From contig OY969622.1 in assembly GCA_963701665.1 (NCBI GenBank), forward strand, positions 768,001 through 832,000: a stretch of 64,000 bases of DNA, in the 5' to 3' direction. Positions within the stretch are counted from its first letter, which is position 1; each line of letters starts with the position of its first letter. Shown piece after piece: positions 26,808-61,158 of the stretch. Made by a program: the position numbers and the translations under genes. Source of the stretch: Candidatus Babeliales bacterium. GTDB taxonomy: Bacteria > Babelota > Babeliae > Babelales > JANWKD01. The notes under the pieces are model-generated. The model was not told the origin of the DNA, searched no databases, and saw only the letters and a program-made list of their open reading frames with translations.

Positions 26808-26840
26808 AAAAAAAGCCTGGCAAACAACCAGGCTTTTTTT
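26808..26840 (+). terminator. rho-independent terminator
   Basis: AAAAAAAGCCTGG-caaacaa-CCAGGCTTTTTTT. Confidence 0.85.
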
Positions 26841-26983: not shown

Positions 26984-27802
26984 ATGCTTTCAATGGTATT
27001 GACGGAAAAAAAAGCATTTTTATTCTTACTCATACTATTAAGCTGTAGTATTGATCATACTCTGCAAGCAAAAAAATTAATTGCTTCAAACCTTGGAAAT
27101 GAAGCGCATTCAAAGGGCTTTGTATATTTGTGTAATATAAAAGATACAGATGACATCAAACCCTCTTTAAGGCTTGTTTCCTTACAAAATTTTGCCGGAA
27201 TGCGTATGAAAGGATTCTCAAGAAAAGATCAGGTAGTTCTTACTAAAAAAACAGCAAAAAAACTTAAAAAAGTACAACGAGATGTCCAAGAAGATGACTA
27301 TTCATTAGTTATTTATAATGCGTATCATCCTCAAGATACCGATGATCAACTCATGAATTGGGCTGCAGATCTTTCAGATCAAAAAAACAAAGCAGATTAC
27401 TATCCTAATGTGGATAAATCAGAATTAATTAACCTTGGTTATATAACTCCTACATCAGCCAATAGCGTAGGACGTACCGTTGAGGTAACCTTAATTGAAA
27501 AAAATAAAAAATTACAAACAATAGTTAAGAGAAAGCGAATATTACAAGATGGAAGTAGCATTGTGCTTCTCGATGATGGTACGGTTGATATGGGCTCATC
27601 GTATGGATTATTTGATAAGGCATCTCACACTGATGACAACGGGCTTCTTGCACCAAAATTCAAAAAACGAAGAATGTATTTGCGCCGGATGATGGCTGCA
27701 CACGGATTCGTTAACACTGATCCAACAAAATGGTGGCTTTTCACCCTTGTAGGTAAGCCCAATACAGATGACAATCAGCACTTCAACTTTCATGTTCAAT
27801 AA
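26984..27802 (+). CDS. VanX/DdpX paralog with substituted catalytic residues (pseudo-enzyme)
   Basis: Collinear with the upstream copy, but motifs read YNAYHPQ, SANSVGRTVE, TKWWL. Confidence 0.85.
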   Translation: MLSMVLTEKKAFLFLLILLSCSIDHTLQAKKLIASNLGNEAHSKGFVYLCNIKDTDDIKPSLRLVSLQNFAGMRMKGFSRKDQVVLTKKTAKKLKKVQRDVQEDDYSLVIYNAYHPQDTDDQLMNWAADLSDQKNKADYYPNVDKSELINLGYITPTSANSVGRTVEVTLIEKNKKLQTIVKRKRILQDGSSIVLLDDGTVDMGSSYGLFDKASHTDDNGLLAPKFKKRRMYLRRMMAAHGFVNTDPTKWWLFTLVGKPNTDDNQHFNFHVQ

Positions 27803-29986: not shown

Positions 29987-30062
29987 GGGCCGCTAGCTCA
30001 ATTGGTAGAGCGACAGACTCTTAATCTGCAGGTTATTGGTTCGATTCCAATGCGGCCCACCA
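29987..30062 (+). tRNA. tRNA-Lys(CTT)
   Basis: Acceptor GGGCCGC/GCGGCCC, anticodon loop CTCTTAA, TTCGATT T-loop, encoded CCA. Confidence 0.95.
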
Positions 30063-30066
30063 ATCT

Positions 30067-30329
30067 ACGCCTGCATGGGGAAAAACTTCGATGTGACGTT
30101 TGGCTACGATTGGCTACGCCATTTTCTTTACGGAGATGATAGCGTAGATTGCCCGTCGTAGCTTGCCAAGCCGGAAGGCGTGGATAAGCGAAGACTGGGC
30201 AGACGCCTGCATGGGGAAAAACTTCGATGTGACATTTGGCTACGATTGGCTACGCCATTTTCTTTACGGAGATGATAGCGTAGATTGCCCGTCGTAGCTT
30301 GCCAAGCCGGAAGGCGTGGATAAGCGAAG
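30067..30329 (+). repeat. tandem 127-bp repeat (period 136) directly after tRNA-Lys
   Basis: 30067..30193 equals 30203..30329 with one mismatch; contains CCCGTCGTAGC...GCGAAG hairpin motif. Confidence 0.9.
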
Positions 30330-30606: not shown

Positions 30607-30693
30607 GCAAGAGTGGCGGAATTGGTAGACGCGCTGGACTTAGGATCCAGTTCCCGAAAGGGAGTGGGGGTTCGATTCCCTTCTCTTGCACCA
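30607..30693 (+). tRNA. tRNA-Leu(TAG)
   Basis: Acceptor GCAAGAG/CTCTTGC, anticodon loop CTTAGGA, long variable arm, encoded CCA. Confidence 0.95.
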
Positions 30694-35424: not shown

Positions 35425-35608
35425 CAGTTTTTTCATTATCCTTTTTAAAACATTCCGCCCTTTTCTAGGCCCTGCTTACTGTACCTTTTACCTTTCCTGT
35501 GGCCATTTTGCATGCCAAGAGCTAGCAGAAAAGAATATTATTACTGCTGCATGGTCAATCACAAAACGCCTAGTCGCCTGTACATTCTCGTTTAAAAAAT
35601 CAGAGTAA
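35399..35608 (+). CDS. yidD: membrane protein insertion efficiency factor YidD (divergent)
   Basis: C-x-F-x-x-S-C and RLVAC three-Cys pattern; follows rnpA. Confidence 0.7.
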   Translation: MTKKTPLINSFFIILFKTFRPFLGPAYCTFYLSCGHFACQELAEKNIITAAWSITKRLVACTFSFKKSE

Positions 35609-37027
35609 TCGACTTACAAGATTACTCAATTCACTACGTTCACTGCATTCAAGGAAGACCATGCCAAAAAGATGTTCCCCTTTAAATTTACTGCTAGCGA
35701 CAACAAGACCATTACTACTAAAATCTAAATATGGCGTATCAATCTGATAAGGGTCACCCGCTAAAACAATTTTACTTCCCTCGCCTACGCGACTGATTAA
35801 TGTTTTTACTTCATGCGGAGTTAGATTTTGTACTTCATCAAGCAAGATATACTGAAACGGTATTGATCGACCACGCATATAGGTGATTGCTTCGAGGCTA
35901 ATTTTTCCTTCACGAATAAGATGATCGAGTGAATCTAACGGCCTACTATGTTTTTTATTATGATGTTTTTGATGTTTTAAATGTTTTTCAAATTGCTTAC
36001 GATTCATACCCTTTTTACCCGAATAAAAAGGCTGCTCCTGATAATAGTGTTCTTCTTCATGCTGCGAAATATTAGCAGCGTAGCTACTAATAAATTCCAT
36101 ATTATCATACATTGGCTGCATCCAACTGCGTAATTTTTCCTCTATGGTTCCTGGCAAATAACCAATATCAGGACCTAATGGAATAACAGGACGAGAAATG
36201 AGCATCTTTTTATACTGATCACTCACAAGAATTTGCTGCAGCCCAGCTAGAAGCGCCAAAAATGTTTTTCCTGTTCCCGCAGGTCCGATGAGACTCACTA
36301 ACGGTATGGCAGGATCTAATAATAAATCTAATGCCATAGCTTGTTGGGGATTTCTCGCTTCCAATGGCCAGCGCAATGAAGGGGGTTGAAACCGTTTAAA
36401 ATTTTTACCACCAAGATACCGAAATAGTTTATAATTCATTGGATTGTTACGGCTTGTAACTAAAATAAATTCATTGTAGGTTAATGTTTTTTCTCTGGCT
36501 AACTCAAGGAGATCATCAGGAAATTCTTTTTTCAATTGCATGGCAGGAACTTCTAAATGGCGCCACCCCTTATAAATTTTTTCTTTAGAAACACCATTTT
36601 TTTCATAATCTAAACTTTTTAACCCTATAACATCAGCCTTCACGCGCGCGTTTAGATCTTTCGAAACAAAATAAACTTCATAACCCTGCTTTTTTAAACA
36701 AAGCCCGGTCATCAGGATTTCGTTATCGGCAATGTCCGTCTTGAGCGGCATGGGGCACGGTTCATCAGGCAAAAAAAGAACCTTTACAATACTCCCGTTT
36801 TCTAAATGAACACCCGTTCGTAAAGACCCTCGTTTACGCAATCCATCTAATCTACGGATAACTGCACGCGTTCCTGCTCCGCGCTCGGTACTTTCAACTT
36901 TAAACTTATCTAATTCTTCAAGCACAATAATTGAAATGCCCACTAATTCTTTCTCGAAGTTTAATAATGATTCTGGGTCATAAATCAACACACTGGTATC
37001 TAAAAGATATATTCTTTTTTCTGCCAT
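35600..37027 (-). CDS. PIN-PhoH family protein (PhoH2/YlaK-like)
   Basis: YLLDTSVL, LEELD, VSKDLNARVKA (PIN); GPAGTGKT, YMRGRS, DEVQN, GDPYQID (PhoH). Confidence 0.92.
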   Translation of the reverse strand: MAEKRIYLLDTSVLIYDPESLLNFEKELVGISIIVLEELDKFKVESTERGAGTRAVIRRLDGLRKRGSLRTGVHLENGSIVKVLFLPDEPCPMPLKTDIADNEILMTGLCLKKQGYEVYFVSKDLNARVKADVIGLKSLDYEKNGVSKEKIYKGWRHLEVPAMQLKKEFPDDLLELAREKTLTYNEFILVTSRNNPMNYKLFRYLGGKNFKRFQPPSLRWPLEARNPQQAMALDLLLDPAIPLVSLIGPAGTGKTFLALLAGLQQILVSDQYKKMLISRPVIPLGPDIGYLPGTIEEKLRSWMQPMYDNMEFISSYAANISQHEEEHYYQEQPFYSGKKGMNRKQFEKHLKHQKHHNKKHSRPLDSLDHLIREGKISLEAITYMRGRSIPFQYILLDEVQNLTPHEVKTLISRVGEGSKIVLAGDPYQIDTPYLDFSSNGLVVASSKFKGEHLFGMVFLECSERSELSNLVSRLL

Positions 37028-43286: not shown

Positions 43287-44324
43287 ATGAATAACATTTG
43301 CTTTGTTATGCACATTTTTTTATTGAATACAATCCTTTTACATGCGCAAGATAATGAAGGTAAAAACGTAACACGGCCAAGATCTGCATCAACTGATTAT
43401 GCATTCACATCAAACAAGTCTCCCAAACGTTTTAAAAATCCCCAATTACAACAAGAAGCAGAAAACTATAACAAAACAATAGAAGATGGCGAGTGCTTAC
43501 AATGGGTTTTAAAACAAAAGCAATCAAATACTATTAAGGATAAACGTGCTCAATTTAGATGTGCCTTAAGATTATTCACTCACTATCAAACAGGTAATCT
43601 CGATGCAATTAACGAAGAAATACTACCTGATTTTAAGAAGGGAGTTTATGGTTTAGGTGCCGATTATCATTATAATCTGGGGTTGTATCATGAAAAAAAA
43701 GCTTTACAACATTTGAAGAACTATGGAGAACAATCACCTCGAACAAAAGTCACCCATCAAGTATTACGTAAAGCAATAAGTCGATGTGAAAAGGCACGAT
43801 TGGCAATACACGATGCTCATAGTATGAATGACGATCCAATAATTAAAGAAAAATTACATGAGATAAATGCATTGTACTTTAGGTTAAGTAGCATGTTAGA
43901 AAAAACACCTGAATATCGACAAGGCATTGAAAAAGCCAAGCTCGCTTATAAGAAACAAGAATCAGGTAAAGACAGCCTCAAACGATCTCAAGCAAAGACA
44001 CTCCAACAAACTACTTATTTGGACCTATTGGGCGAGGCTAAAAAGAGTCTCTTTGCCGCTGCCGATAATTATTTGGATTCTGCTCAGCTTATCTTAGACA
44101 GACACACATTAAGGGCTGCAGAAAAAAATTTAGACCAAATTCTCGACATTGAGACGGAACTCTATGAATCAAATCCAAATACCTACACTACTGAGCCTAG
44201 AATAAAAAGAGTACAAGAAACATTGGCAACATTAAAAGCAAAACTTAAAGATCAAGAAATGGGCATAAGTAGCGTTGAAGATAGCCTTGAATTTCCCGTT
44301 GATCATGAAAAAAGAAACTCATAG
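43287..44324 (+). CDS. hypothetical exported helical protein
   Basis: Signal peptide ending LLHA; 345 aa. Confidence 0.6.
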   Translation: MNNICFVMHIFLLNTILLHAQDNEGKNVTRPRSASTDYAFTSNKSPKRFKNPQLQQEAENYNKTIEDGECLQWVLKQKQSNTIKDKRAQFRCALRLFTHYQTGNLDAINEEILPDFKKGVYGLGADYHYNLGLYHEKKALQHLKNYGEQSPRTKVTHQVLRKAISRCEKARLAIHDAHSMNDDPIIKEKLHEINALYFRLSSMLEKTPEYRQGIEKAKLAYKKQESGKDSLKRSQAKTLQQTTYLDLLGEAKKSLFAAADNYLDSAQLILDRHTLRAAEKNLDQILDIETELYESNPNTYTTEPRIKRVQETLATLKAKLKDQEMGISSVEDSLEFPVDHEKRNS

Positions 44325-44428
44325 ACAATGCATTTATTTCTTTAAATCATAAGATTATATTCATTTTTATCTGATAAAACGTGTAGTATCATTTCAGATT
44401 AATGTTGCTATTTAGGTAAAGGGAATAC

Positions 44429-45553
44429 ATGAAAAAAATTATTTTTATCTTTGTTGTATTTCTTAATTTTAGTATTTATCCCATGAAAGATGATGATAAA
44501 AATAATGACTCATCTCATGCGCACCAAGCACAATCATTGAGCAGAGGTGATAACTCTTTAGGTGAATTGAAGAGGCACAGAAGACGAAGATCTTTGACTG
44601 ATAGCACAGCTAAAAAAATTATAAAAAAAAAAGATCTCACTGTACCTGAAAATTTAGTTTACCCCAGAAAACACCCAAAAGATACAACGCCAACTTTTTT
44701 ACATCCTATACTCTATATGGTAGGAAAACGTCCCGGAGCTAGGGCGCAAGCGCAGGGATTACAAATTTTAAAATTTTTTATTGAAAAGTACGACGATCCA
44801 TATAAAAAAGAATGCCTTATAGAGATCACAGAATATTTCATACGTCTTCATAAAGTAAAATGTAATAAGTATCTAAAGGAAAGCGAACTCTACTTTAACG
44901 CAGAAAAAATCCCCAATGCAAGCACACGGCAAATACAATTACTCAAAGCACAACAAAAAACAAAACAAGCTTTAAAACATCTCCAATTGGAGGCAAATTT
45001 AAGGCAAGAAAAAGTTGAAAAATTGCCAGAATTCCAAGAAACAACTAACCAGATGCAACAAATACAAAAAGAATTGGGTTCAACGCCGAATTATACGATA
45101 ATATCTGAGCTTCAAGCTAAAGCTGAAGCAAAAGAAAGATTAGCCCAAGAACAGTTAAGGGCTGCTCTTGAAGCAAAAAGTGAATCAACATCCTATCCTG
45201 AGGCTGCAGAGTTATCAAAAAATAATAAATCAACGAAATCGGGAGTGCTCACGATCTTAGCGGATAAAAGGAAAAATTTAGAACTATTACGTGAAAAAAA
45301 AGGGGGATCATTAACTTCATTTTTGATGAGAAAACCCGAATCGCACGATAAAGAGGTCAGTGTAGTTTCACCGAATGTAGGTCAACATACATTTGATGCC
45401 TTTCCACCCAATCCACAAAAAAAAGTAAGGAAATTTCAAGTTACCCACGAACAATCACAAGGTAAGGCAGTTACTCTTGAACGAAAAGTACACCAAGGGG
45501 ATAAGAAAAAAGGACAGGAGAAAAACTCAAGTTCGGATGAGGAAAGCGCATAA
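44429..45553 (+). CDS. hypothetical exported protein with basic clusters
   Basis: Signal peptide (..SIYP-M); KRHRRRRS...KKIIKKK; coiled coil. Confidence 0.6.
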   Translation: MKKIIFIFVVFLNFSIYPMKDDDKNNDSSHAHQAQSLSRGDNSLGELKRHRRRRSLTDSTAKKIIKKKDLTVPENLVYPRKHPKDTTPTFLHPILYMVGKRPGARAQAQGLQILKFFIEKYDDPYKKECLIEITEYFIRLHKVKCNKYLKESELYFNAEKIPNASTRQIQLLKAQQKTKQALKHLQLEANLRQEKVEKLPEFQETTNQMQQIQKELGSTPNYTIISELQAKAEAKERLAQEQLRAALEAKSESTSYPEAAELSKNNKSTKSGVLTILADKRKNLELLREKKGGSLTSFLMRKPESHDKEVSVVSPNVGQHTFDAFPPNPQKKVRKFQVTHEQSQGKAVTLERKVHQGDKKKGQEKNSSSDEESA

Positions 45554-45595: not shown

Positions 45596-45868
45596 TTACT
45601 TTTTATTTGCAGCATTAATTTTTTTTGCAAGACGACTTACTTTTCGTGAAGCCGATTTAGGATGCAGCGTATTTTTACCTTTAGCGCGTGCCAACTTTGA
45701 TTCAGCATCTCTAAGAAGTGATTGCAAGGTAGTGCTATCTTCTTTGCTTTCGAGAGCCACTAACACTTTTTTAACTGCTGTTTTGAGAGATGTTTTGCGA
45801 ATGAGATTTTTCTGGCGACGAGTAATATTTTTTCGTGCCTGTTTTTTTGCTGATTTTGTATTTGCCAT
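45596..45868 (-). CDS. rpsT: 30S ribosomal protein S20
   Basis: MANTKSAKKQ..., LHPKSASRKVSRLAK. Confidence 0.96.
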   Translation of the reverse strand: MANTKSAKKQARKNITRRQKNLIRKTSLKTAVKKVLVALESKEDSTTLQSLLRDAESKLARAKGKNTLHPKSASRKVSRLAKKINAANKK

Positions 45869-46177: not shown

Positions 46178-48820
46178 TTAAGACAACTTAAAATCCTGAC
46201 GAGGTTCAATCCCAAGAAGGGCGTAAATTTCACTGGCAAATAATGTTTCTTTTTCATATAAAACGTTAGCCAACTTCTCGAGCTTATCACGATTGTTTTT
46301 CAAGAGTTGAATAACCTTTTGGTAAGAGCTTTCAAGCAACTTTTGTACCTCAGCATCGATACGTTCAGCTGTTTTTTGGGAGTATTGGTATTCACCCTGG
46401 TTTTGGGTATATACCACTGGCCCCATTTCCTCTGACATACCATAATGGCATACCATTTTACGCGCTATTTCAGTAGCTTTTTCAAAATCATTAGAAGCCC
46501 CGGTAGCAAGCACATTAAAGACTAATTCTTCAGCCGCTCGCCCGCCTAAGCATACCATGATTACCGCAAGCATTTCCTCCCTCGTTTGAGTATATTTGTC
46601 TTTCTCCGGTAGCGAGTGCGTTACTCCTAACGCTCGACCACGCGGAATAATAGTAACTTTATGGAGTGGGTCACTATGTTCTGGCATCAGTAATCTAACG
46701 AGCGCATGTCCTGATTCATGAAATGCGGTAATTTTTCGTTCTTCTGGGGAAAGTATAATAGTCTTAAGTGCTTTACCCAGCATCATTTTATCACTCGCTT
46801 CTTCAAAATCATGAACGGTAACAAATTCTTGTTGCGGATCTTTTGAAGCATTTAAAGCAGCTTCATTGACTAAATTAGCTAGATCAGCGCCCGAAAATCC
46901 TGGTGTTCCGCGAGCAATTTTGCTCAAGTCAACGGCAACATCTAATTTTACATTTTTAGCATGGAGCTTTAATATTTTTTCTCGACAGGTAATATCGGGA
47001 TAAGGAACTTCTACACGTCTATCAAATCTGCCCGGTCGTAAAAGTGCTTTATCGAGTGTTTCTGGTCTGTTTGTTGCAGCCATAACAATCACCGATGTTC
47101 CTTCAGTATCAAAGCCATCCATTTCTGTTAATAACTGATTGAGGGTTTGGTTACGTTCTTCATGGCCACCAATACCAGTCACCCGTTTAGCACCAACTGC
47201 ATCAATTTCATCAATGAATATGATACTTGGATTGTGCTTGCGCGCCTGGTTAAATAAATCACGCACGCGTGAAGCGCCAACACCAACATACATTTCAACA
47301 AATTCCGAAGCACTCACCGAAAAGAAAGGGCAATTTGCTTCGCCAGCAACTGCCTTTGCGAGCAATGTTTTACCATTACCCGGCTCACCGACAAGCAAAA
47401 TACCACGGGTGATTTTAGCACCAAGGCGCTTATAGCGTTCGGGATTCTTCAAAAAGTCGACGACATCTTTTAATTCTTCTTTTGCTTCTTCAACACCAGC
47501 TACATCAGCAAAGGTACATTTGACTTGAGATGGCATAAATAATTTTGCTTTTGCATTGCCTTTTGCTGCAGTACTAAGATTTGATGATTGATTTCTTTGC
47601 GATTCAAGCATAACTTTATGCGCTTCTTCAAGATCCTGCTGATCAACACATTCTTTATTTTTTTTAGAAGCATTAATTGCTGCTTTATTCATAAGATTTG
47701 CAAGATCAGCACCGCTAAAGCCTGCAGTTTCTTCAGCAACTTTTTTTAAGTTAACATCCGCACTCATCTTCAATGCTTGAGCGTTTATTGCTAAAATTTG
47801 TTCTCGGCTTGGCGTATCAGGAAATGAAACTTCAACACGGCGATCAAATCTTCCTGGTCGTAAAAGCGCTTTATCTAAAACATCAGGCATATTTGTTGCG
47901 GCAATAACAATGACTGAAGATCCAGCCGTATCAAAACCATCCATTTCAGTAAGTAATTGGTTGAGCGTTTGCTCACGTTCATCGTGACCCCCGCCAAAAC
48001 CACTCCCTCGTTGACGACCAATAGCATCTATTTCATCAATGAAAACAATACTTGGCGCGTGTTTACGAGCTTGTGCAAAAAGATCACGCACGCGTGCAGC
48101 ACCAACGCCAACAAAAACCTCGATAAAATCTGAACCAGTAATACTGAAAAACGGGCAATTTGCTTCGCCAGCGACTGCTTTTGCAAGTAAGGTTTTACCA
48201 TTCCCTGGCTCACCTATCAATAAAACACCGCGGGTAACTTTAGCCCCTAATCGCTTGTATTTTTCGGGATTTTTCAAGAAATCTACAACATCTTTAAGCT
48301 CTTCTTTTGCGTCGTGGGCACCTGCCACCGATTTAAAGGTAACTTTTATCGTAGAAGGCATAAACATTTTTGCTTTACTTTTGCCCATACTAAAGATATT
48401 ACTGCCGCCGCCTGAACCACGACTTTGTTTGAAGAAATACCAAAAACCAAGTGGCATAAGAAGGAAAGAAGCAATCAACAGTAAATGCCAGAAACTAAAC
48501 TGTGATGATAACGGCGCGACTGAGAATTGAACATTATGGTCACGCAAGAGATCAAGATTCTTTGGATTATCAGCAACGACGGTTTCAAAATGGGTATCAT
48601 CTTTCATGATGCCATACACATCTTGACCATTGATATGTACTGATTTTACTTCATTATTTTCAATTGCATCCAAATACTTTGAATAAGAAATATTTTTTAC
48701 TTGTCGCGTGTAATCAGTTAATTTAGTGAGTAACGCGATAGATATTACAAAGAAAAGGACTACAAAGACTAAGTGTTTAGGCCCGCGTGCAAAAGGATTA
48801 TTTTTTAATTTGTGTCTCAT
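46178..48820 (-). CDS. ftsH: ATP-dependent zinc metalloprotease FtsH with tandem AAA+ domains
   Basis: Two TM helices; two [24 protein letters not shown] sets 825 bp apart; one HESGH M41 domain. Confidence 0.96.
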
Positions 48821-48997
48821 AATACACCCATTCTTACTTAAATTTTCACATAAAATTGGAGCATAAGCCATTTCGTGACAGAATCATGAAATGGATCTGA
48901 TAATATATTCTAATTGTACTATAAAATATAAAAAATTGAAAGTTCTGAGTAATTATATTATAAAAGATGCGTACTGTCGATCTTTTCTGAAGAAAAA

Positions 48998-50305
48998 TTA
49001 GGCGAAAATACCTATATCAGCATACTTGCCGGACCAGGCAGGGTAACTACATTCTTCGCCCTCTTTTGTTAAGAAAAACCGTTCTTGGGTAATCATATTT
49101 TGGACAGCGATTCTGCTTTTCTGCCCTTCTTTATAGACATACGCAAGATAATTCCCACAGGGTGACCAGGTACATTCATCCTTACTCCCTCGGTCAAAAG
49201 TAAGCTGATAATGTTCATTGGTAGTCCTATTATACACGAAAATTTGCATATCGTTACCAATTAACTTTGAATAGGCCACTCTGCCTGTTTTATCACATAC
49301 TTGGGGCGAAGCACAATACCCCCCCTGGGTTATCCGCCTTATAAGGCCAGTATCATGGCTTAGAAGGTAAATTTGTGGGCTTTTGGTTTCATAATCAGAG
49401 CAAAAAATAATGTCCCCATTGGCACAAATGTTGGGGGAAGTATTATTTCCTTGGTTAAACGTTATACGCCGATTAACGCCCTTTCTTGATGTGGCATCTA
49501 TATAATAAAGGTATATCTGGCAACTATTTTTGTGCGAGGCACAATAGGCCACTTTTTGACCGTCGGGAGAAAAGTTGGCTAGCATAGTCAATCCATCACC
49601 ATTCGATATGATTTTCCTCTTGCCATCCAACTGAGCAGCCATCAATCTAATATTGGCTGGTGTTACTTCAGAATATAATACCGAAGGATTGTTATTATCT
49701 TTATTCCAACGGGGTCCTAATAGTTTACCACCCTGCACCAAGGTAACTGGTACATCATGAGCGCATGGATCTTGAATGACAATGTTCTTTAAACATTTTT
49801 TACCTTTTTTGACGGTAGTGCAATACGCAATCTTCGTTAAAAAAACACTTTCTTGTCCCGTTAATACCTGCCAGATTTGATCTGCAACACTATGAGCAGT
49901 TGCTTTTGCTGATTTTTGTAAACGCACTTTTTTGCCATCAAGCATGGTACCATTCTGAGTATCGTATATACGCCATTCAACAGTATCGCCACTATACGAA
50001 AGAAAAATTACTACCGAAAAGCCTTGGTCAAAAAAAGTTCGTATTGTTTTTTTTGTTGGTATTTTGGCTAGTACATCCCAATGAACATTAAACCCACTCA
50101 GTTTTTGCTCGGAACATGTTAAATCTTGTGCAACTTTTTTTACAATTGCGCCTAACTCTTGGGAAGTATCCAATGCGATAAGCAGCAATTTCATTTTTTC
50201 TTGCTGTTGACGTGTTGCATCAACTTTTATCGTTTGCTTTGGCATTTGCATAGCATGCACACACCAAATGCTTCCCGCCAACCAAATTAAATGCATCAAT
50301 TTCAT
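48998..50305 (-). CDS. tolB: Tol-Pal beta-propeller protein TolB
   Basis: AHSVADQIWQVLTG..F.TKIAY; FSPDG/WSP repeats; operon order tolQ-R-A-B. Confidence 0.85.
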   Translation of the reverse strand: MKLMHLIWLAGSIWCVHAMQMPKQTIKVDATRQQQEKMKLLLIALDTSQELGAIVKKVAQDLTCSEQKLSGFNVHWDVLAKIPTKKTIRTFFDQGFSVVIFLSYSGDTVEWRIYDTQNGTMLDGKKVRLQKSAKATAHSVADQIWQVLTGQESVFLTKIAYCTTVKKGKKCLKNIVIQDPCAHDVPVTLVQGGKLLGPRWNKDNNNPSVLYSEVTPANIRLMAAQLDGKRKIISNGDGLTMLANFSPDGQKVAYCASHKNSCQIYLYYIDATSRKGVNRRITFNQGNNTSPNICANGDIIFCSDYETKSPQIYLLSHDTGLIRRITQGGYCASPQVCDKTGRVAYSKLIGNDMQIFVYNRTTNEHYQLTFDRGSKDECTWSPCGNYLAYVYKEGQKSRIAVQNMITQERFFLTKEGEECSYPAWSGKYADIGIFA

Positions 50306-50324
50306 AACGTTGCCCCTCGGATGA

Positions 50325-51113
50325 TTAAAAAATTAATTCAATTTCGGTATGCCATAACGCGCGCGGGAAAGGATATTGAGCGACAAAATTCTTTACCATA
50401 ATATCAAGAGCGAGCGCGTGCGATGACTTCACAATGGTCACCGTACGCTCGGTTTCAGAACGTACGCATACTTTTACATGACATTGTTCAGTCGAGGGTA
50501 TATTCGTCGGACGTCGCCATGTTTTTGCGATGCCCGCTTTTATTTCGTTACACAAGGTAATTAATGCTAAATCATAATGACCAACTTGCTGTAGAGTTGT
50601 TGTCGTTGTAGCAGTATCGATCATCGCAGGCATTTTCTGCGAGGGTTGAGCTCGAACTACCGGTTCGATTTTTTTAGTTTTTTCTTTTTTAATGTCAGGT
50701 TTTTTTTCTACTTCTTTTTTTACCGATTTTTGTGGTTCGGGTATCGGTAATTTTTTGGCAGGTTCCTCTTTTTTCTTTTGAGGCTCTTGAATTTTCTTTG
50801 GCTGTAATTCTTTTGCTATCTGCGTCGTTGGCTGTGCACTCGGAACTTTTTTTTGTGCACGCGTTTCTTTTACTGCCTGCGCACGCGTTTGTGCGTTTGG
50901 CGTAATAGTTTTTATAAGCGGCACTAAGACAACCGTTGTACCATCAGAAATATCATGCAAGCGCACTATGTGGGCCAATCGCCACGATTGCACCATCATA
51001 AGTGCAAGAAAAAAAATCAGATGTAAGGTTGCTGAAAAAAATACGAGCTTTGTAAGAAAGATTGTTTTTCTAGGCAGCTTTGGTAGCAAGCTTTTCAGTT
51101 GCAATGGCAACAT
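50325..51113 (-). CDS. TolA/TonB-like energy transducer
   Basis: TM helix with S-x3-H (SATLH), K/P/E-rich linker, C-terminal domain with WRRP. Confidence 0.7.
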   Translation of the reverse strand: MLPLQLKSLLPKLPRKTIFLTKLVFFSATLHLIFFLALMMVQSWRLAHIVRLHDISDGTTVVLVPLIKTITPNAQTRAQAVKETRAQKKVPSAQPTTQIAKELQPKKIQEPQKKKEEPAKKLPIPEPQKSVKKEVEKKPDIKKEKTKKIEPVVRAQPSQKMPAMIDTATTTTTLQQVGHYDLALITLCNEIKAGIAKTWRRPTNIPSTEQCHVKVCVRSETERTVTIVKSSHALALDIMVKNFVAQYPFPRALWHTEIELIF

Positions 51114-51516
51114 CTTTCACTCCTCCAACTACCTTGATTTGATCAATGACGCTTATTAAGATATTTGCTGAACAGGATTGTTGACGATCAACACGCACCC
51201 ATACACGTTTTGACTGTGCAGGATTGCCCACTGCTGAAAGACATTGTTTGATTTCTTGCCCAATAGTTTCAAGCGTTACCGGCTTATTATTGCAATAAAT
51301 TTTTTCTTCTTTATCAATAGAGATAACAATTTCTTGTTGTTCTTTACCAGCTTCTTGCGCAGCTCCTTTTGGCAAATCAATTTTGATAGAATTCTGAAGC
51401 ATGGGCGTTGTAACCATAAAAATTATAAGCAAGGTCAATGCCGTATCGATCAACGGCGTCAGCGTAATTTCCAGTGAAGGTGAAAGAGATTTTTTTCTTC
51501 GTCTCAATGATTGCAT
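51070..51516 (-). CDS. tolR: TolR/ExbD family protein
   Basis: ITLTPLIDTALTLLIIFMVTTP, IDLPK. Confidence 0.88.
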   Translation of the reverse strand: MQSLRRRKKSLSPSLEITLTPLIDTALTLLIIFMVTTPMLQNSIKIDLPKGAAQEAGKEQQEIVISIDKEEKIYCNNKPVTLETIGQEIKQCLSAVGNPAQSKRVWVRVDRQQSCSANILISVIDQIKVVGGVKDVAIATEKLATKAA

Positions 51517-51520
51517 GCAA

Positions 51521-52228
51521 TCAATCTCCTTTCAATAATTCCTTGCGAACAAAAATTTTTTGGATAATCCAATGAAATTTATCAGCTACTTTATAGAGCT
51601 CGTGTTCAACAATGCGAATTTGCGCAATCAAAAAATGGTACATAACGAGCGCAGGAACTGCAACAAGCAAACCAGCGAGGGTGGTAATCAACGCTTCTGC
51701 AATACCGGGTGCTACCGTGGCGATGTCGGCTGATTGTTTTTCACTTATGCGAATGAACGCGTGTACTAATCCCCACACAGTACCGAACAATCCTAATAAT
51801 GGTGAAACTGATGCACTCGTAAATAAAAATGGTAAGTATGATTCTTCCGTACGCATTAAATCTTCGAGCGTTTCTTCAAGTTGTTGTCGTAAATAAGAAC
51901 ATTCTTGCTGCGTAAGATGTGTTTTGCCAGCATCATGCTCAAGAAGTGATTTTAAAATGATGAGATTTCTTTTTAAAAAATAACCGGGCAACGTATCGAT
52001 CATGGCTGAAGCAACCATTCTCATTTCTTCAAACGTTTGCACTTCCCGTAACCGTTCCAGCATCATTGAAAGTTGTCTTTTTTTCAGGCGTAACAAGATG
52101 ACTTTATAAAGAAAAATTGTCCAACAGATAATCGACATACACAAAAGTGTTAGCAGAACAAGCTTTGTTACAAAATCTGATTGAATTACTAATAACCATA
52201 GTGCATTGCCATTCAAATTATACCACAT
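51521..52228 (-). CDS. tolQ: TolQ/ExbB/MotA proton channel protein
   Basis: SPLLGLFGTVWG, VAPGIAEALITTLAGL.VAVPA. Confidence 0.9.
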   Translation of the reverse strand: MWYNLNGNALWLLVIQSDFVTKLVLLTLLCMSIICWTIFLYKVILLRLKKRQLSMMLERLREVQTFEEMRMVASAMIDTLPGYFLKRNLIILKSLLEHDAGKTHLTQQECSYLRQQLEETLEDLMRTEESYLPFLFTSASVSPLLGLFGTVWGLVHAFIRISEKQSADIATVAPGIAEALITTLAGLLVAVPALVMYHFLIAQIRIVEHELYKVADKFHWIIQKIFVRKELLKGD

Positions 52229-54564: not shown

Positions 54565-55872
54565 TTATGATACTGCGCACCATGTTGATGATTTTTCAGG
54601 AACAAGATAAGGCTGCAAAATAGCTGCTAATATGGGCTTATTCTGCATAAGATTCTTAACAGCTTCTTTAACAAGCGAAGGTGCTTTATTGAGTTGAACT
54701 TTTTCATCAATAGTTATCATCTCGAGCAACCATCGCAAGGTTAACGCATCTTCGATTGATAATTTTTGTATATCTGGTTGTAAATCTGGATTTGTTATAT
54801 GCCATTTTTCAACGATTCTTTGATAGGCCATAGTCTTATCACAGATCAACTGATTTTGACTGTCGTACCCTACTGCCTTCTGGGTAGTATACTTTTTAAT
54901 ATTTTCAAGTGAAGCAGCATCCCATATTTGTATTAACCATTTTTTTGTATCTAGTAATGATGATGTTACTAAGTTTGCACCATTTGGTGAGAATGAAACA
55001 GAATGTGCTGGCCCTTGTGAAGTAGCCAGCAATTGACACTTTTGTGTCGCTAAATTCCAAAGGCGTACAATTTTGTCTTCCGTTGCGACTGCTAATATCT
55101 TGTTAGAAGGGGAAAAACGTAATGCAGTAACACATTTTCTGCTTGCGAATTCCGCAATCATACTATCTTCTTGTATACTCCATACAACCACTTTAGAACA
55201 ATTATTCATAGCAAGCGCTATAAGTGATTTATCATCTGAGAAAACGAAGTGTGATGGCGAATTATTTTTTATTTCATCAATAAGTAATTTAGGTAATGTA
55301 TGACTAGCATTAAAACCGTATTTTTTTGCCATTGTTGAAGCAACAAACAAAGACATTTCTGCTGGCATCGTGTCTGAGGGTGGCGCAGTAAATGTTTGCG
55401 TAATTTTAAGCATTTTTTCAAGATGCGTAGTATTAAATTCTTTTATGAGAACATTACTCAACAAATCTGAAGCTATGTTCATAAGAGTACAACAGTCTAA
55501 ATAGTTAGCTGTATTTAATAAAGGTATCAGTGCGTTTAACGATAGTTTTTTTGCTGCGAGGAAAGCTTTGCATTTTTTAAGTATTTCTTCTTTAGATAAA
55601 GTTTTTGATTGTTGAACTAAAAAGTCACTTAATTCTTTAATAATAGACATCTCGCGTGAAGTAACAACATCTGATACTACCAAAGGATTTTGAGTTGTGT
55701 CATCACAGTCTGCGATCATATGAGTAAGTAGTTTTGATTCTTGTATGGTTTCATCGGTAAAGGTAAATTTTCCACCGTCTCGCGTTTCCACCACTATTTC
55801 CATAGCAGAAAGTGAGAATGCGGTATTTATGAGAAACAACATTAAATTTTTTATTACTTTTTTACTAAGCAT
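54565..55872 (-). CDS. putative effector: signal peptide, Skp1/elongin-C-like domain, WD40 repeats, C-terminal CaaX
   Basis: IVVETRDGGKF..SKLLTHMIAD..LLNTANYLD..L; VTALRFSPSNKILAVATEDKIVRLWN; ends WCAVS. Confidence 0.8.
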   Translation of the reverse strand: MLSKKVIKNLMLFLINTAFSLSAMEIVVETRDGGKFTFTDETIQESKLLTHMIADCDDTTQNPLVVSDVVTSREMSIIKELSDFLVQQSKTLSKEEILKKCKAFLAAKKLSLNALIPLLNTANYLDCCTLMNIASDLLSNVLIKEFNTTHLEKMLKITQTFTAPPSDTMPAEMSLFVASTMAKKYGFNASHTLPKLLIDEIKNNSPSHFVFSDDKSLIALAMNNCSKVVVWSIQEDSMIAEFASRKCVTALRFSPSNKILAVATEDKIVRLWNLATQKCQLLATSQGPAHSVSFSPNGANLVTSSLLDTKKWLIQIWDAASLENIKKYTTQKAVGYDSQNQLICDKTMAYQRIVEKWHITNPDLQPDIQKLSIEDALTLRWLLEMITIDEKVQLNKAPSLVKEAVKNLMQNKPILAAILQPYLVPEKSSTWCAVS

Positions 55873-56469: not shown

Positions 56470-59400
56470 ATGAAGCGATCCCCCGTTTTCTACATTATTA
56501 TATTGGGCGCTCTATTTTGCACTTCAGCGATTTCGGCTTCCACAGATATAATGCACCATCCAGATTTCAGTACTGATATTATAGTTGATAAAGACTGTAA
56601 ACAGTTTATCCAAGATATTATCAAAGAAGCACTCATTGATAATACGTATGAACAGCTTTCCGAGGGATTATTACATTGTTACGAAAGAATTCAATGCGAT
56701 CCTGAATGTTGCACATTACCCCTTAATGATCTTATAGATGCCTTCCCTGAATTAGTTGCAAAATTAAAAGAGAAGCTTAAAGCTCCCCGCCCTCCTCAGG
56801 GCAATCATGCTATTGTTGGCAGCAATACCATTGATTTTGGATCTCTTATAGCATTACTAATACGATTAGAATTTCTGATCAATCAACTAGCGCAACAACA
56901 AAGCTCTTGCTGTAGCCAGATACTCTCTGACTTTCAGCAAACATGGTCTATCCTTGATCATCTCTCATTTACTACTACGGTGGATCTTTCTTCCGTGTTT
57001 ACGGCGCTCAATGCATGCTGCTCAAATATAACCTCGGAATTCCAACAAACATGGACCATCCTTGATCATCTCTCACTTACTATTACGGCGGATCTTTCTT
57101 CTGTGTTTACGGCGCTCAATGCATGCTGCTCAAACATAAATTCTGAATTCCAACAAACATGGACTATTTTAGCCGGTCTTTCACTAACTGCTACCGTTGA
57201 TCTTTCTTCTGTGTTTACGGGGCTCAACGCATGCTGCTCAAACATAAATTCTGAATTCCAGCAAACATGGACTATGTTAGCCGCCGGGTTTAATGGTACC
57301 TTCAGTACACTTAATAGTTTTAATACCACTGTTACCACAGATTTTTCATCAACCTGGACAATTATCAATACCGGATTCAATGGAACTTTCTCTGCGCTCA
57401 ATGCATGCTGCTCAAACATAAATTCTGAATTCCAACAAACATGGACTATTTTAGCTGCTGATTTCAATGGCACATTCTCTGCAATTAATGCGATCAACAC
57501 TAATGCAAATAACACGTTCACCGTAATCGCAGATCTAAAAACTACGGTGACCAATGACTTTGCTGCAACATGGACAATTATTAATGCTGGATTCAATGGA
57601 ACCTTCTCTGCGCTCAATGCTTGTTGCACGAATATAAATTCTGAGTTTCAACAAACTTGGACGATCTTAGCTGCTGATTTCAATGGCACATTCTCCGCAA
57701 TCAATGCGATCAACACTAATGCAAATAACACGTTCACCGTAATCGCAGATCTAACAACTACGGTGACCAATGACTTTGCCGCAACATGGACAATTATTAA
57801 TGCCGGATTCAACGGCACCTTCTCTGCACTCAATGCTTGCTGCACGAATATAAATTCCGAATTTCAACAAACATGGACAATTTTAGCCGCTGATTTCAAT
57901 GGCACATTCTCCGCAATCAATGCGATCAACACTAATGCAAATAACACATTCACCGTAATAGCAGATCTAACAACTACGGTGACCAATGACTTTGCTGCAA
58001 CATGGACAATTATTAATGCTGGATTCAATGGAACCTTCTCTGCACTTAATGCTTGCTGCAACAATATAAATTCCGAATTTCAACAAACATGGACTATCTT
58101 AGCTGCTGATTTCAATGGCACATTCTCTGCAATTAATGCGATCAACACTAATGCAAATAACACGTTCACCGTAATCGCAGATCTAAAAAACACTGTTACC
58201 AATGACTTTGCTGCAACATGGACAATTATTAATGCCGGATTTAATGGAACCTTTTCAGCGCTCAATGCTTGTTGCACGAATATAAATTCTGAGTTTCAAC
58301 AAACATGGACTATCTTAGCTGCTGATTTCAATGGCACATTCTCCGCAATCAATGCAATAAGCATAGATGCAAATGGCACCTTCTCTGCACTGGCAGATTT
58401 AAAAAATACAATCACCAATGACTTTGCTGCAACGTGGACAATTCTTAATGCTGGATTCAATGGAACTTTCTCTGCGCTCAATGCTTGCTGCACAACTATA
58501 AATTCTGAGTTTCAACAAACCTGGACTATCTTAGCTGCTGATTTCAATGGCACATTCTCCGCAATTAATGCGATCAACACCAATGCAAATAACACATTCA
58601 CCGTAATCGCAGATCTAACAACTACGGTGACCAATGACTTTGCTGCAACGTGGACAATTATTAATGCTGGATTCAACGGCACCTTCTCTGCACTCGATGC
58701 TTGTTGCAACAACATAAATTCTGAGTTTCAACAAACGTGGACTATCTTAGCTGCTGATTTCAATGGCACATTCTCTGCAATTAATGCGATCAACACTAAT
58801 GCAAATAACACGTTCACCGTAATCGCAGATCTAACAACTACGGTGACCAATGACTTTGCTGCAACGTGGACAATTATTAATGCTGGATTCAATGGCACGT
58901 TCTCTGCACTCAATGCCTGTTGCACAACTATAAATTCCGAATTTCAACAAACATGGACTATCTTAGCTGCTGATTTCAATGGCACATTCTCTGCAATTAA
59001 TGCGATCAACACTAATGCAAATAATACGTTCACCGTAATCGCAGATCTAAAAACTACGGTGACCAATGACTTTGCTGCAACATGGACAATTATTAATGCT
59101 GGATTTAATGGAACCTTCTCTGCACTCAATGCTTGTTGCAACAACATAAATTCTGAGTTTCAACAAACATGGACCATCTTAGCTGCTGATTTCAATGGCA
59201 CATTCAGTATGCTTTCAAATCTTTCTACTGCAGTGACCAATGACTTTGCTGCGACCTGGACCATTTTAGCTGCTGGCTTTAATGGAACCTTCAGCGCAAT
59301 TAATGCCATCACGCTTGATGCAAATGGCACCTTTAGCGCACTATTAGATTTGAAAAATACTATCACTAATGATTTTGCTGCAACGTGGACAATTTTAAAC

Positions 59401-61158
59401 GCTGAGTTCAATGGAACGTTCTCTGCACTCAATGCTTGTTGCACTAACATCAATTCTGAATTCCAACAAACATGGACTATCTTAGCTGCCGGATTTAATG
59501 GCACATTCAGCACACTCGCTACTATTCCTGGCGATTTTAACGCTACATGGACTATTTTGGCCTCTGGCTTTAATGGAACTTTCACAGCGCTCAATGCTTG
59601 TTGCACTAACATCAATTCCGAATTCCAACAAACTTGGACTATCTTAGGTGCTGGTTTCAATGGGACTTTCAGCACACTCGCTACTATTCTTGGCGATTTT
59701 AACGCTACGTGGACTATTTTAGCCTCTGGCTTTAACGGCACCTTCTCGGCACTCAACGCCTGTTGCACTAACATTACTTCTGAGTTCCAACAAACTTGGA
59801 CTATTTTAAATGTCTTAACCGAAAACCTTTCAAATCCGGTTATGATTACGCAAGCAAATTTTGGAACAGCAGGTGGAACGCCCTATATCATTTCAACGTC
59901 TGGCGTATATAGGTTGGGTAGCAATGTTGTTTTCACACCATCTATAACAACTACTGCTATACTTATTACGACAACCAACGTTGTCCTTGATCTACAACTC
60001 TTCACATTAAGCCAAGGAAATACCACCACGGGCGTGAATGCTATCGTCGTTAGTTCTGGTATGACCGATGTGTATATTCAAAATGGCACAATAAAAAACT
60101 TCACACGTTCTGCAATATCATTCCAAGGGAACAATCGAAGAGTAGGAATTGATCAAACCACCACCGTATCATGTGCGGTGCGCGGCATCGAGTTAATCTC
60201 ATCGAGCGCACCGAGCCAAAATGTTATCATTCAAAATTGCAATGTATACAATTGCTCAACAGCAGCAACCGCCGATAATGCATTAATTTTACAATCATGT
60301 AATAAAGGAATAATAAAGGATTGCACATTGAATGGTAATGGTGTTAATTCAAATACCATAAATGTACTTAATTTTAATAGCTGCATTGAATTTATTGTGT
60401 CAGATATCAGTATGTATGAAAATACTGCCTCTTCGCTCAACTGCATATCATTAGATAGCACGTCTTCACTTAATTACTTTGATAACTGTATCATGATGAA
60501 TAATCAATCCATTAATACTCTCAATGGGTTTACTATTTCTAGCAACGCCAATATTTTTAACAATTGCATCGTCAATGGAAATATAAGTTATTCGACAAAT
60601 ACCAGTCCTCTAAACGGATTCAATATAGCGGGATCTTTCAATACAATGACTAACTGCGCAGTATCCTTTAATCAAACACCAGTGCCGACAAGTTCGACGA
60701 CAGTTGCCCCTATTAATGCTTTTGACTTAAGCGGATCTGAAAACATCCTATCTAATTGTCAATCAATATTCAACCAGGCCAACAGTCGTTTTGAGGGATG
60801 TTTTATCTCTACTACGAGCAATATCATCGATCACTTTATAGCCGCTAATAATATAGGTTTCTTAGGTGTCTGTGCTGGCATTTTCATTAACAGCGCCTCA
60901 GCTGTTAACAATATAGTAAGGAATTGTTTATTCGTAAATAATCTTGGTTATACTACTGTGAGTGGACAACCCACCAATGGTTTCGGACTAGATAATGCGG
61001 CTACGGGATATTTAATCTATGACAATGTTGCGTATATAAATCAAACTACACAAATTTTTGGTGTCGCTGCAGGATCTTTAACAACGCCAACAGCACCAGC
61101 ATCACAAAACTTGGCAGCTGTTACAGGTGCCTGGACTAATTTAGCACTCGCTGCTTAA
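56470..61158 (+). CDS. giant repetitive exported fibre-like protein with C-terminal right-handed beta-helix
   Basis: Signal peptide; 72-aa (216-bp) repeats with FQQTWT/FNGTF/ACC; C-terminus ISTSGVYRL..NVVLDL..IQNGTI..IQNC. Confidence 0.85.
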   Translation: MKRSPVFYIIILGALFCTSAISASTDIMHHPDFSTDIIVDKDCKQFIQDIIKEALIDNTYEQLSEGLLHCYERIQCDPECCTLPLNDLIDAFPELVAKLKEKLKAPRPPQGNHAIVGSNTIDFGSLIALLIRLEFLINQLAQQQSSCCSQILSDFQQTWSILDHLSFTTTVDLSSVFTALNACCSNITSEFQQTWTILDHLSLTITADLSSVFTALNACCSNINSEFQQTWTILAGLSLTATVDLSSVFTGLNACCSNINSEFQQTWTMLAAGFNGTFSTLNSFNTTVTTDFSSTWTIINTGFNGTFSALNACCSNINSEFQQTWTILAADFNGTFSAINAINTNANNTFTVIADLKTTVTNDFAATWTIINAGFNGTFSALNACCTNINSEFQQTWTILAADFNGTFSAINAINTNANNTFTVIADLTTTVTNDFAATWTIINAGFNGTFSALNACCTNINSEFQQTWTILAADFNGTFSAINAINTNANNTFTVIADLTTTVTNDFAATWTIINAGFNGTFSALNACCNNINSEFQQTWTILAADFNGTFSAINAINTNANNTFTVIADLKNTVTNDFAATWTIINAGFNGTFSALNACCTNINSEFQQTWTILAADFNGTFSAINAISIDANGTFSALADLKNTITNDFAATWTILNAGFNGTFSALNACCTTINSEFQQTWTILAADFNGTFSAINAINTNANNTFTVIADLTTTVTNDFAATWTIINAGFNGTFSALDACCNNINSEFQQTWTILAADFNGTFSAINAINTNANNTFTVIADLTTTVTNDFAATWTIINAGFNGTFSALNACCTTINSEFQQTWTILAADFNGTFSAINAINTNANNTFTVIADLKTTVTNDFAATWTIINAGFNGTFSALNACCNNINSEFQQTWTILAADFNGTFSMLSNLSTAVTNDFAATWTILAAGFNGTFSAINAITLDANGTFSALLDLKNTITNDFAATWTILNAEFNGTFSALNACCTNINSEFQQTWTILAAGFNGTFSTLATIPGDFNATWTILASGFNGTFTALNACCTNINSEFQQTWTILGAGFNGTFSTLATILGDFNATWTILASGFNGTFSALNACCTNITSEFQQTWTILNVLTENLSNPVMITQANFGTAGGTPYIISTSGVYRLGSNVVFTPSITTTAILITTTNVVLDLQLFTLSQGNTTTGVNAIVVSSGMTDVYIQNGTIKNFTRSAISFQGNNRRVGIDQTTTVSCAVRGIELISSSAPSQNVIIQNCNVYNCSTAATADNALILQSCNKGIIKDCTLNGNGVNSNTINVLNFNSCIEFIVSDISMYENTASSLNCISLDSTSSLNYFDNCIMMNNQSINTLNGFTISSNANIFNNCIVNGNISYSTNTSPLNGFNIAGSFNTMTNCAVSFNQTPVPTSSTTVAPINAFDLSGSENILSNCQSIFNQANSRFEGCFISTTSNIIDHFIAANNIGFLGVCAGIFINSASAVNNIVRNCLFVNNLGYTTVSGQPTNGFGLDNAATGYLIYDNVAYINQTTQIFGVAAGSLTTPTAPASQNLAAVTGAWTNLALAA
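57432..59160 (+). repeat. about eight near-identical 216-bp intragenic tandem repeats
   Basis: Antisense shadow ORFs recur at 57648, 57864, 58080 ... 59160 (period 216). Confidence 0.9.

Follow-up and report, generated by a model that had tools for sequence, protein, structure and literature searches.

An FtsH with two tandem AAA modules in a Candidatus Babeliales bacterium and its relation to multi-AAA FtsH proteins of other lineages

Duplicated AAA modules and the closest described systems

Bacterial FtsH has one AAA+ domain (PMC12067869, in excerpt), whereas two modules per chain are carried by the Cdc48 and ClpA/B/C families (excerpts of PMC7226402). In the Hsp100 proteins ClpA, ClpB and ClpC, the first module (D1) belongs to the classic clade and the second (D2) to the HCLR clade, according to the same excerpts. 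D2 of ClpA was described as the stronger motor and D1 as required for processivity in a part of PMC7568338. The only published two-copy FtsH-type protein found in the literature search was a component of the MoxR-vWA systems (PMC7159879, in part). The present analysis concerned ftsH, the gene of a membrane-bound quality-control protease, at 46178..48820 (minus strand) of a 64,000-nucleotide stretch of contig OY969622.1 (assembly GCA_963701665.1) from an intracellular Candidatus Babeliales bacterium; the whole stretch is referred to as the window. The original prediction, which was made from the letters of the window, held that this gene encodes an FtsH with two complete tandem AAA modules ahead of one protease domain. 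Its premise that canonical FtsH is single-AAA and that Cdc48 and ClpA have two modules was borne out by the first two sources cited above.

Paired motifs were located about 275 residues apart in the protein (residues are numbered in an 897-aa frame unless stated otherwise). The Walker A motif GEPGNGKT occurred at residues 220 and 495, the Walker B motif FIDEID at 277 and 552, and LLRPGRFDR at 336 and 610; the pore loop read FVGVG at 253 and YVGVG at 528, and HESGH occurred once, at residue 718. The membrane-proximal module D1 (aa 166-423; 47603..48376, minus strand) contained Walker A at 48191-48214, the FVG pore loop, the Walker B motif FIDEID, sensor-1 and a lid. The protease-proximal module D2 (aa 441-698; 46778..47551, minus strand) contained Walker A at 47366-47389, the YVG pore loop, Walker B, sensor-1, the second region of homology (SRH) and a lid. 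These were followed by the Peptidase M41 domain (aa 699-897; 46181..46777, minus strand; Pfam PF01434, E = 3e-66), with HESGH at 46706-46720. The Pfam domain order was FtsH_ext (36-119), AAA (215-~348), AAA_lid_3, AAA (491-624), AAA_lid_3 and Peptidase_M41 (706-884).

Unit 1 (aa 166-423) and unit 2 (aa 441-698) were identical at 181 of 258 positions with an offset of 275 aa (BLASTP E = 6e-137), and their DNA was 70.4% identical over 771 aligned bases, the longest stretch without a mismatch being 20 nt. The nonsynonymous (dN) and synonymous (dS) divergences between the units were 0.24 and 1.23, respectively, by the Nei-Gojobori method (NG86). Moreover, an independent repeat search returned direct repeats at spacings of 825 and 822 nt with 75% identity. 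The modules are far more similar than expected by chance, and they represent old copies that have since diverged. The in-frame duplication of a unit of about 275 aa was therefore found as originally described, and the Walker A and Walker B motifs, the FVG and YVG pore loops and the single HESGH were all present as quoted.

An artefact of assembly or annotation, namely a collapsed or expanded repeat or the read-through of two adjacent genes, could in principle produce such an architecture. The gyrA gene of the window is split into two overlapping open reading frames (ORFs), so local sequence errors are possible. However, an assembly duplication was excluded by the low DNA identity of the copies, only 70%; an assembler would neither create nor merge repeats that differ so widely. 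The original prediction had likewise argued from the divergence of the copies. The reading frame was open throughout, and the same architecture was present in 120/120 listed relatives (121/121 proteins with the window protein), which came from independent assemblies, and in 5 intact genome loci. The divergence of the copies and the recurrence of the architecture in all listed relatives effectively refuted the artefact, and its probability is negligible.

The window protein scored 1193.2 bits against TIGR01241 (FtsH_fam), for which the cut-off is 600, and 223 bits against Pfam Peptidase_M41, for which it is 29.9. Two transmembrane (TM) helices flanking a periplasmic domain, a C-terminal HExxH zinc site and the genomic position of ftsH were also found. 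Canonical FtsH (PDB 2dhr, 3kds, 7tdo and 7vhp), AFG3L2 and YME1 have the same two TM helices with a periplasmic domain, a classic-clade AAA module with SRH and an HExxH M41 domain, all in one chain. The window protein departs from them in a further complete AAA module, which is inserted between its membrane anchor and the canonical one. FtsH has one AAA module per protomer, and the solved FtsH chains among the matches listed were all of 644 aa or less with one module, whereas the window protein has two full AAA and lid modules. On module count, it is a variant FtsH and not a canonical member. No dedicated NCBIfam model for a multi-AAA FtsH was matched, and the protein is named plain FtsH.

Two modules with intact ATPase motifs in one chain, which is the arrangement of type II AAA+ proteins, were present in 121/121 proteins. 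The protein resembles Cdc48/p97, VAT and NVL in its two tandem classic-clade AAA modules, which have the same spacing and align collinearly. It differs from them in being membrane-anchored and covalently fused to a protease, and its modules stem from an internal FtsH duplication. The score against TIGR01243 (CDC48) was 450.8 bits, below the cut-off of 802.65, and no Cdc48-type N-domain was among the 25 Pfam families shown for the window protein. In the trees, the window modules nested inside FtsH modules and not in the Cdc48 lineage.

ClpAP has a two-tier motor that feeds a self-compartmentalised peptidase, as is proposed below for the window protein, and it is the best-studied model for the contribution of a second ring. 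In ClpA, D1 and D2 come from different AAA+ clades and the peptidase is separate (PMC7226402, in excerpt). In the window protein, by contrast, the protease is in the same chain and the near-identical modules are both FtsH-type, 70% identical to each other and in one clade with the single modules of the lineage, which sets it apart from ClpA, ClpB and ClpC. The MoxR-vWA FtsH-type protein likewise has two FtsH-type AAA domains, and it differs in its dead N-terminal copy and in its conflict-system operon, as described in part of PMC7159879.

Conservation, genomic position and origin of the two modules

Conservation was evaluated in an ortholog set of 121 proteins, which comprised the window protein and the 120 best relatives listed by a large protein search. 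The relatives were 830-943 aa long and 56-94% identical to the query at a query coverage of 90-98%. They came from many independent assemblies with contigs of up to 1.35 Mb, and those with names were FtsH proteins of Candidatus Babeliales, Babeliaceae or Dependentiae. In each of the 121 proteins, the domain count gave two AAA modules and a single M41 domain. The Walker A Lys, the Walker B Asp-Glu, the sensor-1 Asn, both SRH arginines and the DGF Phe were invariant in D1 and in D2, and the M41 residues H-E-x-G-H were kept in every protein. The pore-loop residue was aromatic in both modules throughout (Phe in 119 and Tyr in 2 for D1; Tyr in 104 and Phe in 17 for D2). A strict motif expression recovered all five motif sets in 109/121 proteins; the 12 misses reflected the strictness of the expression, and the alignment gave the key residues in 121/121. 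The retention of catalytic and pore residues in both modules, which had been claimed for the window protein, held across the whole alignment.

The mean pairwise identity among the orthologs was 0.704 for D1, 0.670 for D2, 0.543 for M41, 0.403 for the N-terminal region and 0.21 for the linker between the modules. No other part of the protein is as conserved as the AAA modules, and D1 ranks highest. Against four orthologous genes, dN was 0.052, 0.109, 0.113 and 0.212 for D1 and 0.094, 0.159, 0.172 and 0.267 for D2. The dN/dS ratio was below 0.2 for both modules in 4/4 comparisons, although dS was saturated, which makes these values rough; 4 region comparisons gave no valid dS. The sequence comparisons showed strong purifying selection on both modules, with the ATPase, arginine-finger, inter-subunit-signalling and pore-loop residues all kept.

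Arginine fingers and the DGF motif work between ring subunits, and pore aromatics work in the central channel. Because all of these are invariant in D1, this module would be a working ring and not a loose appendage. Alternatively, the D1 ring may be non-translocating and serve assembly, regulation or the docking of substrates or adaptors, with all pulling by D2. Such non-motor roles are often described for p97 D1 and NSF D2. Moreover, D2 and M41 by themselves amount to the entire cytosolic part of a canonical FtsH, related genomes make do with single-module orthologs, and in ClpA the substrate contacts important for unfolding were in D2, with segments within D1 of little consequence (part of PMC11570520). 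However, the Walker B Glu, the sensor-1 Asn, both arginine fingers and the pore aromatic are kept in D1 in 121/121 proteins, and D1 is both the region of highest identity and the module that retains the ancestral pore Phe. Had D1 become purely structural, residues for hydrolysis or of the pore should have been lost, as happened in the inactive N-terminal copy according to the excerpt of PMC7159879. A non-translocating D1 was therefore considered unlikely on these residues, and D1 as a working ring was preferred.

The same-strand neighbours of the window gene were tolQ, tolR, a tolA-like gene and tolB upstream (48998..52228, minus strand; Pfam MotA_ExbB, ExbD and PD40) and rpsT, which encodes ribosomal protein S20, downstream (45596..45868, minus strand; Pfam Ribosomal_S20p). 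Both flanks were conserved in related loci. Species-representative genomes were scanned by exact peptide patterns, and the best 80 of 272 confirmed relatives were compared; the scan was no census of single and double forms in Dependentiae, and a second ftsH elsewhere in those genomes was not excludable by it. Six loci (L001-L006) carried double-AAA genes from metagenome-assembled genomes of Babeliales/Dependentiae; L004 was cut by a contig end and five were intact. Twelve loci (L007-L016, L021 and L025) carried single-AAA genes of 605-662 aa that were 62-69% identical to the query, two of which were labelled Dependentiae. The remaining 62 were single-AAA genes of other phyla.

Among the double-AAA loci, tolB was upstream in 5/6 and rpsT downstream in 5/6, and the corresponding counts for the 12 Dependentiae-type single-AAA loci were 11/12 and 11/12. 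Neither flank was present in any of the 8 other-phylum loci checked. The single-AAA and double-AAA forms are positional orthologs, because the tolB and rpsT flanks are common to both. The window gene, as a positional ortholog of single-AAA ftsH, is on this evidence the housekeeping ftsH of a Babeliales bacterium (phylum Dependentiae/TM6). No second AAA or M41 ORF was present elsewhere among the ORFs of the 64-kb window. The in-frame two-module architecture of the original prediction stood; that related genomes carry single-AAA orthologs at this locus had gone unnoticed in it.

Membership in the MoxR-vWA "FtsH ternary" conflict systems (Kaur, Burroughs, Iyer, Aravind, eLife 2020) was also considered, since their FtsH-type ATPase likewise has two such AAA domains per chain (PMC7159879, in part). 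The N-terminal copy is inactive in that protein, as the same part of the source states, whereas both copies are intact here in 121/121 proteins, with the Walker A and Walker B motifs of D1 preserved. No MoxR or vWA gene was present among the window ORFs scanned (35.6-64 kb), where the neighbours were tolQRAB and rpsT, and the window gene is a positional ortholog of the housekeeping ftsH. This identity has a vanishingly small probability.

The origin of the second module was explored with a module tree (IQ-TREE, quick mode) of 69 modules, including 13 outgroup modules. The Dependentiae-type modules (D1, D2 and single) formed one clade against the 13 outgroup modules, with a support of 99 in the Shimodaira-Hasegawa-like approximate likelihood ratio test (SH-aLRT), and D1 formed one clade of 19/19 rows with a support of 99. 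Descent of both modules from the lineage's own FtsH AAA module was shown at the level of the sequence tree. Since D1, D2 and the single modules form one clade and the single forms occupy the same locus, the extra module is an in-place internal tandem duplication and not a fusion with Cdc48 or Clp. One whole AAA module, with its pre-AAA segment, large subdomain and lid, was tandemly duplicated inside ftsH.

One duplication after the split from the single-AAA lineage is compatible with these trees, not proven by them. The free module tree set the single modules beside D1 (support 84) and left D2 paraphyletic. A tree constrained to unite D1 and D2, to the exclusion of the singles, had a log-likelihood 2.76 higher than the free tree and was not rejected by the approximately unbiased test (p-AU 0.564). 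The M41-domain tree interleaved single and double forms, with a support below 80 at most deep forks. Module losses or repeated duplication events are possible explanations of this pattern. The module phylogeny placed D1 and D2 within one Dependentiae-type clade, and it left a single gain unproven.

Multi-AAA FtsH in other lineages and the predicted double ring

The AAA-AAA-M41 architecture was found lineage-wide in part of Dependentiae, and forms with two to four modules were found elsewhere. In an exhaustive HMMER search of 1.84 billion representatives, the best 150 matches comprised 125 proteins with one AAA and M41, 11 with two AAA and M41, 6 with three and 1 with four (P0129). The rest were 2 whole (AAA-M41)x2 fusions, 1 protein with three AAA without M41, and 4 without M41 by the thresholds used. 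The two fusions, P0124 (1428 aa) and P0227 (1021 aa), are whole-unit tandems and represent another way to multiply FtsH parts; read-through in gene calling is possible for them. A search of a protein-cluster atlas returned ordinary single-AAA FtsH clusters of about 600 aa only.

For the triple form P0122, the 120 homologs listed comprised 73 three-module, 41 two-module, 4 four-module and 2 partial proteins. Those with names came from Thermoleophilaceae, Solirubrobacterales, Gaiellaceae, Acidimicrobiales, Egibacteraceae and Mycobacteriales, with one Chloroflexi label. For P0131, 37 of 38 homologs were triple, and two were named Candidatus Obscuribacterales. Every module in these two groups of homologs kept the Walker A Lys and the two arginine fingers, apart from one Walker A alignment gap in module 1 of an Obscuribacterales protein. 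The other exceptions were confined to single proteins: Walker B Glu changes in module 2 of 3 in Actinomycetota and Obscuribacterales, and a sensor-1 Asn change in module 2 of 3 in Actinomycetota. The pore residue was more variable in these sets, and the median Walker A spacing was 272 in Actinomycetota and 266 in Obscuribacterales. These proteins, which are database entries only, share the TM segment, two to four AAA modules and M41 with the window protein; they differ from it in their independent duplications and in having mostly three modules.

The modules grouped by lineage and not by position. The 19 Actinomycetota rows had an SH-aLRT of 99, P0129 with P0231 99, P0179 98, P0200 96 and the Dependentiae clade 99. 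FastTree gave the same lineage grouping, with a support of 100 for a clade of 40 rows of these multi-AAA proteins. Because the modules cluster in this way, the multi-AAA architecture is deduced to have arisen independently at least five times. The chances appear evenly balanced that these proteins make up an unrecognised class, in which two, three or four intact AAA rings would be stacked repeatedly on one M41 chamber, the two-tier form would have replaced the housekeeping FtsH in part of Dependentiae, and the spacing of about 270 residues would be a shared geometric solution.

The first Walker A had a median position of residue 205 in the 121 double-AAA proteins and lay at 203-206 in 10/12 single-AAA proteins (214 and 258 in the other two). 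The distance from the last Walker A to HExGH was 220-224 in the double forms (five commonest values) and 223 in 12/12 single forms, and the spacing between the two Walker A motifs in the double forms was 270-278 residues. The insert is exactly one module. Since the two outer distances match those of the single forms, D1 stands in the place of the single ring with respect to the membrane and D2 with respect to the protease, each at the canonical distance. D1-D2 aligned collinearly in one stretch with Cdc48 6oaa_B (12-516 vs 211-714) and with VAT 5g4g_A (8-524 vs 178-696), and D2 with M41 aligned from one end to the other with 2dhr_A, a solved cytosolic region of FtsH.

The divergence of the modules was uneven along their length. 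In the first two thirds of the module, the single forms resembled D1 (0.811 and 0.786) more than D2 (0.758 and 0.705), and FtsH of other phyla did likewise. In the lid third, the single forms and other-phylum FtsH were nearer to D2 (0.601) than to D1 (0.493). The two alignment columns that were diagnostic at 70% were the pore aromatic, where the ancestral Phe is kept in D1, and a lid position, where the ancestral Pro is kept in D2. Each module has thus stayed ancestral on the side facing its old neighbour and has changed on the side that, in a stack, would abut the other ring. Divergence of the D1 lid and the D2 large subdomain is the pattern that a stack of two rings would produce.

The protein probably forms a hexamer in which two stacked active AAA rings feed one M41 chamber. 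The hexamer would be held together through the M41 ring, and the twelve AAA modules would form two stacked rings, with D1 under the membrane in the usual place of the single ring and D2 docked on the protease. A substrate tail would enter D1, pass on to D2 and from there reach the M41 chamber. On the model of ClpA, D2 would act as the principal motor, with D1 required for processivity, and the extra ring may add grip and processivity, with fewer back-slips, in the extraction or unfolding of stable membrane or cytosolic proteins. The stronger unfolding or extraction activity of the original prediction is likewise a proposal. The extra ring would also lengthen the substrate tail required to reach the motor nearest to the protease.

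The same chain could also be arranged in plane, with its D1 and D2 adjacent in a single six-module ring, so that three chains would make a pseudo-hexamer with three protease domains. Covalently linked ClpX subunits occupy neighbouring ring positions in this way. The Ser/Gly/Ala/Gln-rich D1-D2 linker (aa 424-440; 47552..47602, minus strand) had no invariant columns (0/17), a mean pairwise identity of 0.21 and a predicted local distance difference test score (pLDDT) below 50; together with the pre-AAA segment (28-38 residues between the module envelopes) it can reach a neighbouring ring position, and the D1-D2 orientation was not fixed by AlphaFold2 (AF2), with a predicted template modelling score (pTM) of 0.53. 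However, the six-fold protease chamber, the stable hexameric core of solved FtsH (PMC12067869, in excerpt), cannot be closed by only three M41 domains. The independent three- and four-module forms keep the same spacing of about 266-275 residues, and four modules do not tile a six-membered ring. Furthermore, the canonical D1-membrane and D2-protease spacings are retained, and the way in which the D1 lid and the D2 large subdomain have diverged asymmetrically suits a top-bottom interface better than an alternating ring. The in-plane arrangement is quite improbable on these grounds.

Structure models were compared with the stacked arrangement. The full-length AF2 model (74-sequence alignment) had a mean pLDDT of 82.3, with low-confidence linkers, and a pTM of 0.52; D1-D2 alone had a pLDDT of 84.1. 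In Foldseek searches, the D2 and M41 model matched AFG3L2 6nyy_E with a target-normalised TM-score (TMt) of 0.89 and a root mean square deviation (rmsd) of 2.5, and FtsH with TMt 0.77-0.78. The two-module part matched p97, CDC48 and NVL protomers over 540-570 columns, with TMt up to 0.69, query-normalised TM-score (TMq) up to 0.65 and rmsd of 6-9 Å. These monomer models offer weak support for a p97-like stack.

Several points weigh against the stacked double ring with two active motors. Ring stacking and the oligomeric state were deduced from sequence logic and monomer models. AF2 placed the domains with low confidence (pTM 0.52-0.53), and the modest p97 resemblance may stem from the training of AF2 on p97. 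Only 2 alignment columns distinguished D1 from D2 at 70% or more and 0 at 90% or more; therefore, little sign of a division of labour between the modules was seen in the sequences. Single-module positional orthologs occur in related genomes, and because of them the second ring is not essential to this kind of organism.

Gene features, the window and significance

The minus-strand ORF extended over 46178..48871 (897 aa) with its in-frame ATG at 48871. Position 48820 corresponds to an internal ATG at M18, and a start there gives a coding sequence of 880 aa at 46178..48820, including the stop codon. The true start is likely at 48820, because the relatives measure about 880 aa and align over 98% of the query. 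TM helix 1 (about aa 31-56; 48704..48781, minus strand) was placed by a hydropathy segment at 27-56 and an AF2 helix at 14-39 in 880-aa numbering, which was used for all AF2 helix positions. The periplasmic FtsH_ext domain followed (about aa 57-126; 48494..48703, minus strand; Pfam PF06480 at residues 36-119, E = 2.6e-10). TM helix 2 (about aa 127-151; 48419..48493, minus strand) was placed by a hydropathy segment at 125-149 and an AF2 helix at 110-134, and was followed by a Gly-rich low-confidence linker to D1 (pLDDT below 50 at 134-144). A promoter-like site, TCGACA-17-TATAAT, in the tolB-ftsH spacer (48952..48980, minus strand) was a consensus match only, at 11/12 positions. Promoter and terminator scans of the region gave no excess over shuffled sequence (7 promoter-like sites found, 9.7 expected), and Rfam and tRNA scans found nothing inside or adjoining ftsH.

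Beyond rpsT, towards the gene of a penicillin-binding protein (PBP), ORFs of 345 and 374 aa with hydrophobic N-termini and no Pfam match were located at 43287-45553 (plus strand). The 345-aa protein had a detectable relative in L001 only among 26 loci checked, so the spacer between the PBP gene and rpsT is variable. The split gyrA gene (5152-7756, minus strand) consisted of ORFs at 6782-7756 and 5152-6831, with a frame change near 6805-6812 as read by eye; the cause is a sequencing error or, alternatively, a genuine frameshift in this essential gene. Two adjacent ORFs of 1562 aa (56470-61158) and at least 928 aa (61216-63999, running off the window end) on the plus strand each contained 8.6 copies of a 216-nt (72-aa) tandem repeat (57350-59205 and 62080-63941), plus 108-nt repeats, and the Pfam scan of these giant ORFs gave spurious low-complexity matches only. 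A 136-nt unit was repeated 1.9 times with 99% identity at 30067-30329 (plus strand), directly 3' of tRNA-Lys(ctt) at 29987-30062, and tRNA-Leu(tag) was at 30607-30693. The window also encoded two adjacent paralogous Peptidase_M15 (D-Ala-D-Ala dipeptidase) genes at 26011-27802 (plus strand), a PIN-PhoH fusion protein of 475 aa at 35603-37027 (minus strand) and a WD40 beta-propeller protein at 54568-55872 (minus strand), whose Pfam matches were to eukaryotic-type propeller families, all below cut-off except the generic WD40 repeat.

The full-text literature, with subscription-only papers outside the search, yielded no account of an FtsH in which two or more AAA modules are active. No paper in the literature search contained "FtsH" and "Dependentiae" together, and the main texts of the TM6 genome papers PMC4776705, PMC4378268 and PMC6561590, supplements aside, contained "FtsH" 0 times. 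The original prediction would have fallen if the architecture had been both common and already characterised. The architecture proved to be common, occurring in part of Dependentiae, in Actinomycetota, in Obscuribacterales and in others, and no paper characterising it was found. The names given by current pipelines ("FtsH" and "AAA family ATPase") mask the multi-module architecture.

Whether FtsH is a weak unfoldase is an open question (PMC9601784, in part). The forms with two to four modules, together with the single-ring orthologs that sister genomes carry at this locus, constitute a natural experiment that bears on grip, processivity, tail length and membrane-protein extraction. If the double ring is true, the single and double orthologs at one locus would be a clean system for the effect of an extra ring on unfolding force and processivity. 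The double-AAA FtsH is real, conserved and lineage-wide in part of Dependentiae, and its interest lies mainly in its being part of a recurrent, apparently undescribed multi-ring FtsH class. The repeated independent origin of this architecture suggests selection, possibly tied to a reduction of the chaperone and protease sets of host-dependent or slow-growing lineages.

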